From NCBI GenBank assembly GCA_965219955.1, contig OZ244799.1, positions 2,304,001 through 2,368,000 on the forward strand: a stretch of 64,000 bases of DNA. The letters run 5' to 3'. The notes under the pieces are model-generated. The model saw only the letters and a program-made list of their open reading frames with translations. It made no database searches and was not told the origin of the DNA. The position numbers were made by a program, and so were the translations under genes. The DNA comes from a bacterium. GTDB taxonomy: Bacteria > UBA8248. Below, one piece after another: positions 16,358 through 20,987 of this stretch (position 1 is the stretch's first letter; each line of letters begins with the position of its first letter).

Positions 16358-17557
16358 ATGTCGAAAACAGGACGGGACCTGCTCGAGGACGCGCGGGGCG
16401 ATGTTCCTGAGATCACGGCGGAGGAAGTGAAGTACGCCGTCGATACCGGCGCCGAGGTGGCGCTCATTGACGTGCGCGAACCGGATGAGTTCCGGGGCGG
16501 CTACCTGCCGGGTGCGGAGCACGTGAGCCGCGGATTCCTGGAACTCAAGATCGAGCAGGTCGTCCCCGACAGAAAGACGCCCATCGTCGCCTATTGCGCG
16601 GGCGGCGTGCGCTCGCTGCTCGCGGGCCAGGTGCTCCAGTCCATGGGTTATCAGAACGTGAAATCCATGGCGGGCGGTTACGGCAAGTGGAAGGATCTCG
16701 GTTTTCCCGTCCAGGTGGACAAGCAAATGAGCGCCGAGCAGCTGAACCGCTACAGCCGCCACTTCTTGCTCTCCCAGATCGGGGAAAAAGGCCAGGCCAA
16801 ACTCCTGGACGCCAAGGTCGTCCTGATAGGCGCGGGCGGGCTGGGTTCTCCCACCGGGCTGTATCTGACGGCCATGGGCGTGGGCAACATCGGCATCGTG
16901 GATATGGACGTCGTGGACATGAGCAACCTGCAGCGCCAGATCGTCCACACGAACGATCGCGTGGGCACCTCCAAGGTCGAGAGCGCGGCCGCCACCTTCA
17001 CCGCGCTGAACCCCGACGTGAACGTCATCGCGCACGAAGATAGAATCAACCGCGACAACGCGCTCGATATCCTGAAAGACTACGACGTCATCGTGAACGG
17101 GGCGGACAATTTCCCGACCCGCTACCTCGTGAACGACGCGGCTGTCTTTCTCGGAAAGCCCATCGTCGACGCCTCTATCTTCAAGTTCGAGGGCCAGGCC
17201 ACCGTCTACCATCCCGCCAAGGGCGGCCCCTGCTACCGCTGCCTCTATCCCGAACCGCCGCCGCCCGGCATGGTGCCCTCCTGCCAGGACGCGGGCGTGC
17301 TCGGCGCGCTTTGCGGCACGATGGGCTCCATCCAGGCGACGGAGACGGCCAAGCTCATCGTGGGCTTCGGCGAACCGCTTATCGGCAAACTCCTGATGTA
17401 CGACGCGCTCAAATCGCAGTTCAGGACGCTCAAGATCAGGCGCGACCCCGCCTGCCCGGTGTGCGGAGACAGCCCCTCCATCACCGAGCTCATCGACTAC
17501 GAGTTCTTCTGCGGCCTCACCGAAGCCCCCGCTACGGCCTCCGTCAACGGGGGCTGA
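16358..17557 (+). CDS. moeB: Molybdopterin-synthase adenylyltransferase MoeB/MoeZ-like (ThiF/E1 family) with N-terminal rhodanese domain
   Basis: Rhodanese IDVREPDE...YCAGGVRS; RYSRH, GAGGLGSP, SNLQRQ, CYRC, CPVC. Confidence 0.92.
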   Translation: MSKTGRDLLEDARGDVPEITAEEVKYAVDTGAEVALIDVREPDEFRGGYLPGAEHVSRGFLELKIEQVVPDRKTPIVAYCAGGVRSLLAGQVLQSMGYQNVKSMAGGYGKWKDLGFPVQVDKQMSAEQLNRYSRHFLLSQIGEKGQAKLLDAKVVLIGAGGLGSPTGLYLTAMGVGNIGIVDMDVVDMSNLQRQIVHTNDRVGTSKVESAAATFTALNPDVNVIAHEDRINRDNALDILKDYDVIVNGADNFPTRYLVNDAAVFLGKPIVDASIFKFEGQATVYHPAKGGPCYRCLYPEPPPPGMVPSCQDAGVLGALCGTMGSIQATETAKLIVGFGEPLIGKLLMYDALKSQFRTLKIRRDPACPVCGDSPSITELIDYEFFCGLTEAPATASVNGG

Positions 17558-17616
17558 TGGGAGAGAAGCGGGCAAGGAAGCGGACGTGGTGAACTAACAA
17601 AACCCAGCAAAAAGAC

Positions 17617-17653
17617 ACCCCCGGGGCATGAGCCTCGGGGGTTTTTCGCTTTT
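17617..17653 (+). terminator. Rho-independent terminator after moeB; marks the left edge of the AT-rich island
   Basis: ACCCCCGGGGC-ATGA-GCCTCGGGGGT hairpin followed by TTTTCGCTTTT. Confidence 0.8.
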
Positions 17654-17676
17654 CACATAAATTCAAAATATTTTGC

Positions 17677-17705
17677 TTGACAATAATAATTATTTGACTC
17701 ATAGT
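17677..17705 (+). promoter_or_regulatory. Putative sigma70 promoter of the retron operon
   Basis: TTGACA (17677-17682), 17-nt spacer, CATAGT; AT-rich upstream region. Confidence 0.6.
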
Positions 17706-17714
17706 TAGAAATAT

Positions 17715-18166
17715 TGCAGCAGGGTGATTCGCCCTGTATGTTCTTTGACAATCCATCTTCGAGTTTGGTGTTTAGACTTCTATCCGACACCTCTCCAAGC
17801 ATTCGGCTTTTCTGGATGCTTGTGCTTGAAATTTAGGCTATGCCTAAAATCCAGTGTGAAAATTCCGGCACTGTGATTTCCCATCTATGCAGCGAATCCA
17901 AGACCTTAGGTTTCCTATTTACAGAAGCATCGGGCATTGGGTTATCGGTCACTCACAAAATGAAAAATGTATGGAGAGGGCGTTCGCACTATTAATGAAC
18001 ATTATAGGCGAACTAGCGAATGAGGGGGTCTTACGGTAGATCCCGCCAGTTTCTAATCAGAAACAAACAAAGGACAAAGGAGGTGATTAGATGAAGAAAA
18101 TTTAAACACCAAAATCTCCGCCCGACAACTTTATCCATAGGAGAAAAAATAAATGGATAAAATCGG
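17715..18166 (+). ncRNA. Putative retron msr-msd-like structured RNA / 5' leader
   Basis: Perfect 11-bp long-range inverted repeat TTTGGTGTTTA (17764-17774) / TAAACACCAAA (18103-18113) enclosing several hairpins (17796-17822, 17832-17848, 17852-17873, 17982-18013, about 18025-18044, 18049-18064); lies upstream of a retron-type RT; ends approximate. Confidence 0.75.
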
Positions 18167-18464
18167 TAACTCGAAGGTGGGCCTTGAGAGGGCCGTAAAA
18201 GATGTTATCAAAGTCGCTTATAAGCTACTTCGGCAACAAAACGACCCTCTTATGGCGGGGACTTCAAAGGTAGTTCGTTGTCGTCTCAAGCAGCTTGAGC
18301 GTCAGTTGCAAAAAAAGCGAACGAATCCATTTCCCAAAAAAGAACTGGATAAAATCGCTAGAGAAGCAACTGACACGATAAGCTATCTTATGAAGTCCCT
18401 CATTCGTTACTTATTTTCCGCAATTTACAATTGCGAGTTATTGAAAGCATGGAAAACAAATTAG
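18153..18464 (+). CDS. Small basic hypothetical protein (103 aa), candidate retron effector
   Basis: SD AGGAG upstream, AT-rich like the island, overlaps the downstream HTH gene; no family recognised. Confidence 0.7.
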   Translation: MDKIGNSKVGLERAVKDVIKVAYKLLRQQNDPLMAGTSKVVRCRLKQLERQLQKKRTNPFPKKELDKIAREATDTISYLMKSLIRYLFSAIYNCELLKAWKTN

Positions 18465-18754
18465 GCAACACACTAAAAGTAATTAGAGTAGCTGCAGGTA
18501 TAAACCAGTCCGCTATGGCAAAAAAGCTGGAGATTACCCAAAACTATTTGTCTTTGGTCGAAAACAATCACAAAGAACCGAGCTTATCATTCTTGAAAAA
18601 GTTTGCCTCTAGTTTCGATATTCCTCTTGGGTATTTTTTATGGCTAGCCTTAGACAAGCAAGAAAATATGGAGGAAAAAGAATTGCGTGACAAGATGGAA
18701 ATACTTCTCAAAGAAATACTAATAGGCAGAAGAAGTGAAAATGTTACAGGATAA
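18449..18754 (+). CDS. XRE/Cro-C1 helix-turn-helix protein
   Basis: LGNTLKVIRVAAGINQSAMAKKLEITQNYLSLVENNHKEPSLSFLKKFA is a typical HTH_3 pattern; ATG at 18449. Confidence 0.9.
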   Translation: MENKLGNTLKVIRVAAGINQSAMAKKLEITQNYLSLVENNHKEPSLSFLKKFASSFDIPLGYFLWLALDKQENMEEKELRDKMEILLKEILIGRRSENVTG

Positions 18755-19688
18755 ACAGCCTAATCTAAAATCATCCTGGAATTTACGGACTTTGAAAGAT
18801 TTGTCACGCCTTCTAGGTGTAAAAGAAGAAATCATAAACGAGATTTCGAACTCAGCACACTTGATGTACCGGTCGCGAGAAGAACCAAAGAAATCTGGAG
18901 GAGCAAGACCAATAGATGTCCCTGGCAATAGATTAAAATGGATACAATCGACGATTAACAAGCGTTTATTGCAAAGGACCCTCGTCCATAAATCTGCAAT
19001 GGGTGGTATTCGAGGCAAACGATTAAAAGACAATGCTCAAAAACACGTTGGGAAAAATTTAGTTGCCAAATTCGATTTAGAAAATTACTTTTCGAATATT
19101 TCTCATCAGCAAGTCTACGATCGATTTTGCTCCATTGGATGCTCCCCTGATGTGGCTAGGGTTCTCACCAAACTAACAACATATAAAGGAAGAGTTCCAC
19201 AAGGAGCACCCACAAGTACTATGCTTGCGAATTTAGTAGCTGCATTTGCAAGAGACTGCAATAGTTTCAATGCAAGAATTGTTTCACTGGCTAAAAAGCG
19301 TCGTGCAACCGCTACTACTTGGGTTGACGATGTAACAATGTCAGGCCCGCGTAATATTCAAAAAGAAGCCAATACTTTCGAGAAAATTGCTAGGCAAAGT
19401 GGCTTCATACCAAACACTGATAAAAATGAATTCATAGGTAACAACCAACAACAATTCGTCACTGGAGCAGTTGTCAATCAAAAAGTAAGCGCCTCAAAAA
19501 AATACAGGAAAGCAATACGCGCGGAACTCCATCAACTCAAAGTTCATGGCCCAAGAAATATTTGTAAAGAGCCGATCAAAAAAATAAAGGAGCAGCTTCG
19601 GGGCAAAATTGCACACATAGACAACTTAAACCCCGAGCATGGTGAAAAACTTCTAAAAGAATTCAGCGCTATCGACTGGGACTCTTAA
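18735..19688 (+). CDS. Retron-type reverse transcriptase
   Basis: KKSGGARPI..LKWIQ, NAQKH (retron region X, NAxxH), DLENYF, PQGAPTS, WVDD (YxDD equivalent), VTG (retron region Y); 317 aa with no maturase, endonuclease or Cas1 domain; start may be ATG 18741. Confidence 0.93.
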   Translation: MKMLQDKQPNLKSSWNLRTLKDLSRLLGVKEEIINEISNSAHLMYRSREEPKKSGGARPIDVPGNRLKWIQSTINKRLLQRTLVHKSAMGGIRGKRLKDNAQKHVGKNLVAKFDLENYFSNISHQQVYDRFCSIGCSPDVARVLTKLTTYKGRVPQGAPTSTMLANLVAAFARDCNSFNARIVSLAKKRRATATTWVDDVTMSGPRNIQKEANTFEKIARQSGFIPNTDKNEFIGNNQQQFVTGAVVNQKVSASKKYRKAIRAELHQLKVHGPRNICKEPIKKIKEQLRGKIAHIDNLNPEHGEKLLKEFSAIDWDS

Positions 19689-19711
19689 AAGTCACCAACC
19701 ATAAGACTGAA

Positions 19712-20068
19712 CTACCCAATCTCCTCAAGCTCCGCCGCATCCATCACGGGCCGAATGGGGTAGCCGCCCCGCAGGAATTCGGCGAGAAAACCCAGGTGTT
19801 CGGCGAGGGCTGACATGTGCGCGGCGGCGTAGCGCGAGGAGAGCGCGTCGGCTTTCCGCGCCAGGGCTTCGCGGGCGTCCGCGGCGGGGTCATCCTGTGC
19901 GGCGAGGGCGTTATAGGCGTCGAGCAGGGCGCGCACGTCTTCGTGCTCCCCTGCATAGCCTGTATTCAGCGCATAGGGGCTTCGTAAGATCAAATGGACG
20001 GGGTTTTGCGTGTTCGAGGACTGATCGAGCATGCAGCGGCTGCGCCTTTGGTCGTAGTTTTCGGGCAT
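19712..20068 (-). CDS. Hypothetical protein
   Basis: SD GAGGA upstream, host-like codon usage, directly downstream of the MBL gene. Confidence 0.55.
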   Translation of the reverse strand: MPENYDQRRSRCMLDQSSNTQNPVHLILRSPYALNTGYAGEHEDVRALLDAYNALAAQDDPAADAREALARKADALSSRYAAAHMSALAEHLGFLAEFLRGGYPIRPVMDAAELEEIG

Positions 20069-20078
20069 GGCGTCCTCT

Positions 20079-20987
20079 TCAACCTCCCCTTGCGTCGTGG
20101 AGCGATATCCCCTGCTCGCCCCTCCCCTTGAACTCGTTGTAGAGCTTCATCACGGCCTGTTCGACGCGGTCGGGCTTCATCCACTCGGCATAAATCCCTA
20201 AGGGAATCTCGCGCGCGGCGCGTCTGGCGGGGATTCCCTCCTTGAAACGCTTTCGCGCCTCCCGGCGCACGAGCCGAAGGTAGCCCAGGGTTTTCTCGAG
20301 TGCACTCTTGTCCCCCGGCGGCCCGTGGCCCGGAACGACCGTCTCGACGGGGAAGGTTTTGAGTATCTTCTCCGCGACCCGTATCCACCCGCCGACGTGG
20401 GCGTCGAAGGTGGCGGGCGTGACGTAGTGAAAGCAGATGTCACCGGTGAAGAGAACACGCTCTTCGGGCAGATAGACGACCGTGTCGCCTTTCGAATGCG
20501 CGTGGCCCAGGTGGTGGAGTTCCACGACGCGCTTGCCCAGGCGGAGCGTCATGCCCCCCTCGTAGATGACGTCGGGAAAGCGCTGTTTGAGCCTTTTGAG
20601 TTCCGAGGCATATTCGGGGTTCACGCCCCGGTAGTGCGCGAGGTCGAGGCCCGTTTCCACCATCCGCTCGCGCATGTAGCGGTGTGCGATGACGGGGATA
20701 TCGTTATCGAACCAGATGAGGCCCAAGGTGTGATCCGCATGGTGGTGGGTGCAGACGACCTTGCGCACCGGCTTTCTGGTCGCTTTGAGGATGGCCTCCT
20801 GAAAGGCCTGCGTCATGGGGCGCACGTAGAGCGCGTCGACGACGAGCGCCTCATCGTCCCCCACGATGAGGCCTGCGTTCGAGACGTTCAGCCCGCCCGC
20901 CTGGATGTAGGCGTAGACGCCCGGGGCCATGCGCTGAAGCCCCGTCTTCCAGCTTGTGGGCACTTTCCGGGTTCCAGCCATGCGCAC
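20079..20987 (-). CDS. MBL-fold metallo-hydrolase (cyclase-like)
   Basis: SNAGLI, THHHADHTLG, AHSKGD, FTGD, VPGHG. Confidence 0.92.
   Translation of the reverse strand: MRMAGTRKVPTSWKTGLQRMAPGVYAYIQAGGLNVSNAGLIVGDDEALVVDALYVRPMTQAFQEAILKATRKPVRKVVCTHHHADHTLGLIWFDNDIPVIAHRYMRERMVETGLDLAHYRGVNPEYASELKRLKQRFPDVIYEGGMTLRLGKRVVELHHLGHAHSKGDTVVYLPEERVLFTGDICFHYVTPATFDAHVGGWIRVAEKILKTFPVETVVPGHGPPGDKSALEKTLGYLRLVRREARKRFKEGIPARRAAREIPLGIYAEWMKPDRVEQAVMKLYNEFKGRGEQGISLHDARGG

Follow-up and report, generated by a model that had tools for sequence, protein, structure and literature searches.

What the long-range stem upstream of a retron reverse transcriptase (RT) gene closes, and what it does for the genes behind it, is the question raised by a small locus in a bacterium of the GTDB lineage UBA8248 (assembly GCA_965219955.1, contig OZ244799.1, positions 2,304,001 to 2,368,000 of the forward strand). 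This whole stretch of 64,000 nucleotides is referred to below as the window (W), with positions counted from its first letter; L denotes homologous loci, X contigs from public runs and G related genomes. An initial annotation of the window had described the region upstream of the RT gene as a retron RNA with a long-range closing stem, and the gene set and the folding both agree with that description: the stem is real, and the evidence supports its being the basal stem of a retron non-coding RNA (ncRNA). The reading that we favor, with a probability of roughly 0.7, is that positions 17712-18152 are the noncoding 5' half of a Type VI hybrid RNA, in which this stem (helix D), together with helix C, forms the base of a hairpin-bearing arm lying within another long-range helix (helix B).

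The genes encoded downstream of the ncRNA are the following:

18153-18464, plus strand: SP, a small protein of 103 residues, with a homologous open reading frame (ORF) in seven of seven loci
18449-18754, plus strand: Cro/C1-type helix-turn-helix (HTH) protein (PADLOC HTH_VI 2.1e-25; Pfam HTH_3 1.1e-11)
18735-19688, plus strand: retron RT (PADLOC RT_VI 6.5e-66 and RT_III-A 2.3e-68; Pfam RVT_1 4.3e-15)

The HTH gene overlaps the end of the SP gene by 16 nt, and the RT gene starts at 18735, before the HTH gene ends (18754). The RT translation contains NAQKH, VTG and WVDD, which we take to be retron RT signature motifs, and scores 8e-48 against the NCBIfam family retron_St85_RT, under that family's cut-off. 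RT_III-A scores slightly higher than RT_VI, and it is the HTH gene overlapping the RT start that decides for Type VI over Type III-A. The features that define Type VI are present in the genes (a retron-type RT, an HTH gene overlapping it and an upstream SP gene) and, by prediction and comparison, in the RNA (a stem-loop lying upstream, inverted repeats, one long hairpin of variable sequence and an SP start that is sequestered). Judged by its genes, the locus is a small, presumably anti-phage Type VI retron with the order SP-HTH-RT. SP is presumed to be the toxic effector. It has no match in Pfam, PADLOC or NCBIfam, and its family is small, with 22 clusters at E<=0.001 in a search of 1.84 billion representatives and five near relatives, the window's own protein counted, in a word search; an ESM Atlas look-up returned eukaryotic 'hypothetical' clusters only and was uninformative. 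The predicted SP structure consists of three helices (mean pLDDT 79.5), which loosely fits the helical core described for SP toxins in the accessible part of the preprint on the Type VI retron Sen3 (bioRxiv 10.64898/2026.04.27.721009), a study with SP clusters named cl2075, cl2760, cl3272 and cl3897. An Rfam cmscan of 17000-20200 at E<=10 gave seven weak matches, none to a retron and all far below gathering scores, the best having E = 0.73.

Relatives of the locus are few. Among 201 related genomes (G000 included), four matched at E<=0.001, and the locus is present only in G000 and G020, the other two matches being 26-33 bases long. A genome scan found one syntenic ortholog, L001, with an RT 84% identical and the same island at the same site; G020 is apparently the same genome as L001, its locus (L083) scoring identically. 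A word-based protein search found 79 RTs at E<=1e-30 among 1280 candidates, six of them (the window's own included) 84-100% identical over the aligned part and 26 at 45-56%. An alignment of 32 RTs was then scanned over metagenome contigs, where at least 465 of 590 stretches were confirmed and the best 80 kept; L002-L008, which come from these best 80 of at least 465, have RTs 45-50% identical, and of these L002-L006 also have sufficient DNA on the upstream side, together with homologous SP and HTH genes. The comparison set comprises seven loci in three clades: W and L001; L002, L003 and L005; L004 and L006. Close relatives on contigs from public runs add X5, X8 (from a metatranscriptome library) and X9, together with X6, which covers only 18471-18760 and, like X9, contributed little; X5 has 55 changes, 40 of them listed up to 18508, and no indel listed in its coding part up to 18760. 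Searched with nhmmer among 85 loci, a profile of the seven upstream RNAs matched only records of those seven distinct loci. A DNA pattern scan of viral contigs with the consensus of the 5' hairpin P0 and its motif gave no match, the RT alignment found 16 loci in viral contigs, all at <=33% identity and none matching the ncRNA profile, and the plasmid and phage collections held no RT above 32.4% identity.

The RNA itself would be transcribed from near 17712, and its elements outside the internal hairpins are, in order:

17677-17705, plus strand: sigma-70-like promoter, TTGACA-17 nt-CATAGT (consensus scan, 10 of 12 matches)
17719-17737, plus strand: P0, conserved 5' hairpin shortly before the long-range arms (8 pairs, with pairing in 100% of cells across seven sequences)
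17741-17748, plus strand: helix A 5' arm, GTTCTTTG (family motif GCTCTTTGA), pairing with 18068-18075
17753-17765, plus strand: helix B 5' arm, CCATCTTCGAGTT (13 nt, 92% complementary to 18168-18180)
17764-17776, plus strand: helix D 5' arm, the a1 repeat of the initial annotation with G17775 and A17776 (sequence, folding)
17788-17794, plus strand: helix C 5' arm, CACCUCU, resembling an anti-Shine-Dalgarno (anti-SD) sequence, family form CUCACCUCC (minimum free energy (MFE) folds of seven of seven loci; pair probability 1.00)
18068-18075, plus strand: helix A 3' arm, CAAAGGAC, crossing helices B, D and C
18079-18085, plus strand: helix C 3' arm, SD-like GGAGGTG, a decoy (AGGAGGTGA invariant in seven of seven loci)
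18101-18113, plus strand: helix D 3' arm, the a2 repeat of the initial annotation with TT (sequence, folding)
18130-18161, plus strand: SP start hairpin (9-bp perfect inverted repeat 18130-18138/18153-18161; pair probability 0.94; kept in L001)
18168-18180, plus strand: helix B 3' arm, covering SP codons 6-9 and the beginning of codon 10 (same basis as its 5' arm)

The upstream regions of the seven loci align, and their separate MFE folds all give the nested order P0, B, D, C. Helix B, which had been missed together with the crossing helix A, is found in the MFE fold of every locus, the leader pairing with SP codons ~5-9, and its duplex energy is reached by 0, 0, 2, 0, 0, 1 and 7 of 1000 shuffles in the seven loci. 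Seven of its 13 pairs are changed on both sides, and the clade versions (TTCGAGT/ACTCGAA, CGAGG/CCTCG, TTTTTGGAGA/TCTCCAAAAA and TTTTCGGAG/CTCCGAAAA) all keep the pairing; a matrix of cognate against non-cognate duplexes is block-diagonal by clade. Helix B is well supported by these comparisons. P0 adds a compensatory pair, G-C having become A-U on both sides in L004 and L006. In helix A, which in the other clades reads GCTCTTTGA/TCAAAGAGC, 98.3% of cells are paired and the second pair is C-G in four loci, U.G in one and U-A in two; in X5 and X9 a change of 18073 from G to A turns the one wobble pair of the window's helix A, U.G, into U-A. Taken together in alignment A4, the tested set of P0, A, B and C pairs in 89.7% of cells, against at most 47.0% with slid partners, and its covariation score of 0.256, against 0.180 in shuffles, was matched by none of 500 shuffles. 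A W-clade insertion shifts the helix D 3' arm to different alignment columns. At the in silico level, the analysis shows the gene set, the conserved helices and the covariation of B, A and P0. The comparison of homologues that the initial annotation had proposed as a check thus found covariation in helices B, A and P0, but helix D above chance only in W and L001.

Helix D itself is where it had been placed, with TTTGGTGTTTA at 17764-17774, TAAACACCAAA at 18103-18113 and G17775 in its TTAG context. A repeat search extends its arms to 17761-17779/18098-18116 (19 nt, 84% complementary), and the folding check bore the stem out, both the MFE and the centroid fold of 17755-18125 being closed by the 11-bp stem. 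That fold has an energy of -118.6 kcal/mol, against -91.55 +/- 5.22 for shuffles (z -5.18, with none of 100 shuffles as good), and in a fold of 17712-18200 the mean pair probability of the 11 bp is 0.88. The perfect 11-bp repeat taken alone is only marginally unusual, a perfect inverted repeat of at least 11 bp at 100-520 nt spacing arising in 92 of 2000 dinucleotide shuffles of 17600-18200. Its arm duplex is reached by 2 of 1000 shuffles in W and 11 of 1000 in L001, against 138-751 of 1000 in L002-L006, where helix D amounts to 4-8 weak pairs; it is absent in L009, a distant Type VI locus. In L001 the helix is kept: one U-A pair has become U.G, and the 3' arm carries an additional T that matches an altered base of the 5' arm. 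In X5, X8 and X9 the change of 18101 from T to C breaks the 17776-18101 pair, and no change is listed in the 11 core pairs of X5. To judge from these sequences, the 11-bp stem is strong only in the lineage of W and L001.

The pairing proposed to continue inward from helix D (TTCT/AGAA, ATC/GAT and CACCTC/GAGGTG) is present in full in the window, and its last segment is found family-wide, but TTCT/AGAA is broken in X5 (17778, T to C). The family-wide segment is helix C, in which CACCTC (17788-17793) pairs with GAGGTG (18080-18085) at a probability of 1.00 in the fold of 17712-18200, and in which a CUCACCUCC-like arm pairs with invariant AGGAGGUGA across the family; by its sequence, helix C is a family-wide anti-SD:SD helix. 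Its SD-like arm serves no SP start, the SP frame being closed by the TAA at 18150-18152, and can be called a decoy. The SP gene's own SD, GGAGA at 18140-18144, lies in a hairpin loop, with the AUG in the stem of the same hairpin. Helix C is also present in two distant Type VI loci, L009 and L010, where the SD it contains stands ahead of the SP start codon. L009, with an RT ~32% identical and an SP of another family, has P0, an A-like motif, helix B and helix C in the same order as here; L010 is without the W-like 5' order. Since helix C in these two loci contains the real SP ribosome-binding site, it likely controls toxin translation and does not only occlude the template. The proposal that the extra pairing covers the template start is accordingly weakened, its conserved part being an anti-SD:SD helix probably acting on the toxin. 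The sequences suggest that the family of W to L006 has gained 60-100 nt and a second SD between helix C and the SP start, and folding suggests that in the W clade part of the added segment pairs back as helix D. The order in L010 (1236-1254) is the SD of helix C, a start-stop pair (AUG-UAA) and the SP start codon.

Helix A cannot nest with B, C or D. In transcripts ending just before the decoy SD, helix A closes seven of seven folds; in those ending at the SP AUG, helix C (with D) closes six of seven; and in those extending past the early SP codons, B, D and C are found in all seven. Forcing helix A costs +3.2 to +18.9 kcal/mol relative to the MFE, and +11.7 in the window. The folding models point to two alternative closures, with helix A favored early in transcription.

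Pairing of a far-upstream leader with the first SP codons was also seen in two distant Type VI loci with unrelated SP families, L053 (327-670) and L009 (1509-1925), and in L053 it takes the form of a perfect 14-bp helix (349-362 with 628-641). A 5' hairpin followed by a motif resembling TCTTTGAC or CTCTTTAAC occurs in L053 and L014. A helix between leader and coding sequence may be general to Type VI retrons. A duplex screen of whole leaders in distant Type VI loci was noisy (even W was matched by 116 of 300 shuffles) and served only to choose loci for folding. The SP 3' end showed no consistent pairing with the 5' end in W, L001, L002 and L003, folded to the HTH start.

Within the basal helices, the initial annotation had counted at least six hairpins, and the fold of 17712-18200 predicts seven hairpin domains (17796-17822, 17834-17846, 17847-17879, 17880-17980, 17982-18013, 18021-18048 and 18049-18064), grouped here as follows:

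17796-17879, plus strand: H1-H3, three small hairpins, candidate msr-like part (folds; 84% identical to L001)
17880-17980, plus strand: H4, long branched hairpin with hypervariable core, candidate template (msd) stem-loop (folds, L001 identity, analogy)
17982-18064, plus strand: H5-H7, three small hairpins (RNAalifold on seven loci)

H4 is the least conserved segment, sharing 58% identity with L001, whereas the remaining transcribed segments share 78-86% and that of the promoter 67%. H4 still folds as a long hairpin in L001; the X8 contig is of the same length but diverged over 17857-17931. Its variable core resembles that of SL3, the template stem-loop of the Sen3 lineage, as described in the available part of that preprint (bioRxiv 10.64898/2026.04.27.721009), and H4 also resembles the long stem-loop of the Type VI retron Vpa2, as far as its preprint was accessible (bioRxiv 10.1101/2025.10.22.683967). 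H5-H7 comprise 17 pairs in the RNAalifold structure, seven of them with both sides changed. For H5, the outer GTTCGC..GCGAAC of the hairpin first drawn is retained, but its inner TAATG-AA-CATTA would leave a 2-nt loop, and the MFE fold instead pairs CTAT with ATAG round an 11-nt loop. An invariant CGAAT linker lies at 18017-18021; candidate pairings of it with P0 or H1 were inconsistent across clades and were rejected. The 7-nt direct repeat AGCGAAT, at 17891-17897 on the 5' side of H4 and at 18015-18021 in the H5-H6 linker, is probably incidental, as it is not kept in L001 and 18016 is changed in X5 and X9. Three 50-residue ORFs within the RNA (17724-17876, 17840-17995 and 17887-18039) were likewise rejected as genes; the corresponding ORFs have 111, 95 and 65 residues in L002, L003 and L005. 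The enclosed span had been noted as long for a classical msr-msd; long it is, but it fits Type VI RNAs, reported at ~280 nt for Sen3 and ~470 nt for Vpa2 in what is accessible of the two preprints.

A proposal for how such an RNA would work leans on the accessible description of Vpa2 (bioRxiv 10.1101/2025.10.22.683967). There, a hybrid RNA of ~470 nt combines the msr-msd with a translationally repressed SP, whose ribosome-binding site and AUG lie in stem-loops, and inverted repeats link the arms; the HTH protein represses reverse transcription, synthesis of the complementary DNA (cDNA) is conditional by experiment, the multicopy single-stranded DNA (msDNA) maps to the long stem-loop and a 23-nt stem-loop on its 3' RNA side, and the cDNA switches the toxin on. 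In the window, we infer the template, the priming nucleotide, the direction of the switch and the effect on translation. Helices D and C would stand at the foot of the arm that carries the RT-recognition and template hairpins, and helix B (17753-17765/18168-18180) would enclose both, tying the leader to SP codons 6-9. In the full transcript, three clamps would then rest on the toxin start: the SD-like sequence held in helix C, the AUG held in its local hairpin and the early codons held in helix B. Helix A (17741-17748/18068-18075) would close the ncRNA alone, forming first during transcription and being displaced later. By analogy with Vpa2, RT and HTH protein would bind the RNA, the HTH protein would restrain cDNA synthesis, the cDNA would be copied from H4 and one or more small hairpins 3' of it, and the RNA fold would couple cDNA production to translation of the SP toxin. 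The conditional cDNA synthesis put forward at the outset has thus been demonstrated in Vpa2 and may hold here by analogy.

A more specific version, which we put forward tentatively and consider unlikely to be right, makes the basal region a two-state switch tying reverse transcription to toxin translation. The nascent ncRNA would be closed by helix A, with C, D and B taking its place as soon as transcription has gone past the decoy SD and the initial SP codons, and clamping the start region of the toxin; the decoy SD would have evolved from the real SP ribosome-binding site still seen in helix C of distant Type VI retrons. Because the 3' arms of A and C are adjacent and lie at or near the 3' end of the template, their copying, their removal by RNase H or the annealing of free cDNA to them would undo the clamp.

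Several points weigh against the favored reading. All structural elements are predictions; only seven loci in three clades, related in sequence, are available, and they are also the source of the structure tested on them, which inflates the agreement. Support for helix D is confined to W and L001. Helix C and the greater part of helix A show little variation and hence rest on conservation, not covariation, and since A4 misaligns the helix C arms of W and L001, the 87% figure obtained there is rough. The equilibrium pair probability of helix A is 0.0, and its role would therefore depend on kinetics or proteins. The X8 contig ends at 17769, inside helix D and not at the presumptive transcription start, and hence lends no support to the promoter call, contig ends not being transcript ends. 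Finally, the two studied Type VI retrons differ: as far as the Sen3 preprint was accessible, Sen3 makes single-stranded DNA (ssDNA) and SP constitutively, so that coupling of the Vpa2 type may not apply here.

Alternative readings concern mainly which helix is the terminal closure and which nucleotide primes, a nucleotide that the accessible parts of the Vpa2 and Sen3 preprints do not state. It is conceivable, if doubtful, that the RT substrate's true terminal closure, equivalent to a1/a2, lies in helix A, and that D and C form a competing conformer for translation control only. Helix A directly follows P0, as the 5' inverted repeat is described to do in the Sen3 lineage, and closes every truncated fold; one of its pairs covaries, relatives improve it, and an A-like helix of different sequence is found in L009. 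It would also put H7, H6 and H5 at the 3' end of the template, resembling the small 5' stem-loop reported for Vpa2 msDNA. However, no G follows its 5' arm (the next bases are ACAATCC here and AAAACC in relatives), and it is 3-19 kcal/mol less stable than the B/D/C fold.

Two candidate priming nucleotides lie inside the favored reading's basal stem:

17775, plus strand: candidate branching G of the initial annotation (G in W, L001 and X8; A in X5)
17786, plus strand: alternative candidate, a G lying one base 5' of helix C (the same base in W, L001 and X8; X5 without a listed change here)

That the same basal stem primes from G17786, at the foot of helix C, seems improbable to us; the decoy SD would be copied first and the cDNA would start with an anti-SD-like sequence. 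In its favor, this G is shared by the close relatives, a G stands directly 5' of the helix C arm in L002-L006 and L009, and the SD-like sequence of L002-L006 is doubled. Yet L010 is without that G, in several loci the G is merely the closing pair of helix C, an SD-complementary cDNA would be expected to block translation and not to free it, and the Vpa2 repeats are reportedly in loops, whereas the decoy SD is in a stem.

Somewhat more improbable still is the canonical reading originally proposed, in which helix D is an a1/a2 stem, the 2'-OH of G17775 primes, the start of the template lies near 18102 and initiation is gated by the inner pairing. The geometry is classical, an 11-bp stem with a G right after its 5' arm, the stem is strong in W and L001, and cDNA synthesis is described as conditional in Vpa2. 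A G also occurs 10-12 nt after the helix B 5' arm in all seven loci, at 10 nt in the window. However, X5, with no indel listed in its SP and HTH part, has A at 17775 and its next G only at 17786, a change that weakens the reading, and L010 is also without a G at the corresponding junction, so that a G right 3' of the a1 arm is not invariant. In W and L001, moreover, this G is predicted to pair with U (in the window with U18102, probability 0.99) and is not free at the end of the stem, and helix D is not above chance in L002-L006 and absent in L009. A start near 18102 also fits poorly, as the cDNA would exceed 200 nt before passing H4, against products of 86, 112 and 145 nt reported for Type VI retrons in the accessible parts of bioRxiv 10.1101/2025.10.22.683967 and 10.64898/2026.04.27.721009. 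On these sequences, G17775 is not favored as the priming G.

A four-codon ORF (M-K-K-I-stop, 18091-18105) opens 7 nt past the decoy SD, and its stop codon lies within the helix D 3' arm. A translation-coupled switch, in which the decoy SD (GGAGGTGAT) drives this leader ORF from the ATG at 18091 to the TAA at 18105 and its translation melts helix D, strikes us as very improbable. The ORF is kept in L001 as M-K-I-T-stop, and its sole change in X5, X8 and X9, 18101 T to C, alters codon 4 and leaves start and stop intact; but a start codon at this distance is missing from L002-L006, helix C buries the SD with a probability of 1.00, and four codons easily arise by chance. Least credible of all is a functionless chance match in AT-rich DNA, which the frequency of such perfect repeats in shuffles would allow but which is contradicted by the z-score of the fold, the rarity of the arm duplex among shuffles, the changes by which L001 keeps the stem, the absence of any listed change in the 11 core pairs of X5 and a stem position predicted to be paired in all seven loci.

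The retron described so far lies in a compact island:

~17648-19712, plus strand: retron island of ~2.06 kb (composition; empty sites in congeners; matching island and site in L001)

Its GC content is 0.36-0.44, against ~0.63 for the genome. In the empty sites of the congeneric genomes G002, G012 and G013, 17645-17647 is joined to 19719-19734; the bounds of the island follow from these three sites, where the downstream gene begins 6-22 bases after the terminator of the ThiF/rhodanese gene. The island starts directly 3' of the T-tract of that terminator and contains no integrase. No obvious direct repeat flanks it (window 17648 and 19712; L102, L103 and L105), and the 3' end of the adjacent minus-strand gene differs between filled and empty sites. 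The upstream gene (16358-17557), with its terminator at 17617-17642, encodes a rhodanese-ThiF fusion protein (Pfam ThiF 5.7e-81, Rhodanese 2.6e-19) and is ordinary host DNA. At the promoter, the -10 block (C/T)ATAGTTAGA is conserved in seven of seven loci; the longer block TTGAC(T/A)(C/T)ATAGTTAGA (17694-17708), which overlaps the -10 element and is kept in all seven loci, is a partial palindrome (TGACT...AGTTA) and may be a candidate operator of the HTH protein. Run X8 yielded a 2130-nt metatranscriptome contig reaching from inside helix D via SP and HTH into the RT gene (17769-18755), a weak hint of operon expression, with DNA carry-over possible.

The interest of the locus lies in the group to which it seems to belong, retrons whose usual logic is, in the available descriptions, reversed (in Vpa2 the cDNA switches the toxin on) or rewired (in Sen3 control is post-translational). 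To this group it adds a third independent set of sequences sharing the scaffold, two closures that clearly exclude each other and a natural G-to-A variant at the most obvious priming position, which together narrow the search for the priming site and point to the helices worth mutating. At 2.06 kb with its own promoter, the island is very compact and self-contained, and would lend itself to work in a laboratory strain.

Among better known RNAs, type I toxin-antitoxin mRNAs such as hok use a long-range fold-back to keep the toxin translation start shut. The window's RNA resembles them in its anti-SD pairing, in the pairing of its leader with distant parts of the mRNA and in its alternative folds during synthesis or processing; unlike hok, it has no antisense RNA partner, doubles as an RT template and belongs to a system with HTH protein and RT, so that the likeness would be an analogy of mechanism and not one of membership. 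Canonical retron msr-msd RNAs, such as that of Ec86/Eco1, have an a1/a2 stem and a branching G. With these the window shares an inverted repeat that, upstream of a retron RT, encloses small hairpins and a long variable one, and, in the W lineage, a G following the 5' arm. It differs from them in that the G is lost in a close relative, the stem appears not to be conserved family-wide, the helix continues inside the G, three further hairpins stand between the long one and the 3' arm and no Rfam family is matched.

The closest parallels are the two Type VI retrons described in preprints, as far as these were accessible. For Sen3, Garcia-Rodriguez et al. (bioRxiv 10.64898/2026.04.27.721009) report an ncRNA of ~280 nt with a long SL3 of variable core and alternative long-range pairings, constitutive ssDNA and SP with post-translational control of the toxin, and ssDNA that is debranched in E. 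coli. The cl2075-lineage ncRNA of Retron-Sen3 shares with the window's RNA the terminal inverted repeats, an SD placed in the basal stem, a long internal stem-loop whose core is not conserved and alternative long-range pairings involving the SP region; here, the enclosed RNA is longer (~350 nt) and the second long-range helix has its end within the coding part of SP and not past the stop codon. With Vpa2, as described by Zhang et al. (bioRxiv 10.1101/2025.10.22.683967), the window shares the order SP-HTH-RT, a single transcript with RT template region and SP coding sequence, the ribosome-binding site or AUG of SP in stem-loops (here predicted), inverted repeats tying the arms, a long stem-loop and a small 3' one as template (here a candidate) and the idea of conditional cDNA. 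It departs from Vpa2 in that the SD of the basal stem is a decoy, a second SD serving SP. The kind of retron is thus one already described in these two preprints, and against their published descriptions the window stands apart as a separate lineage, set off by an SP family of its own, by the decoy SD and by an extra stem peculiar to it.

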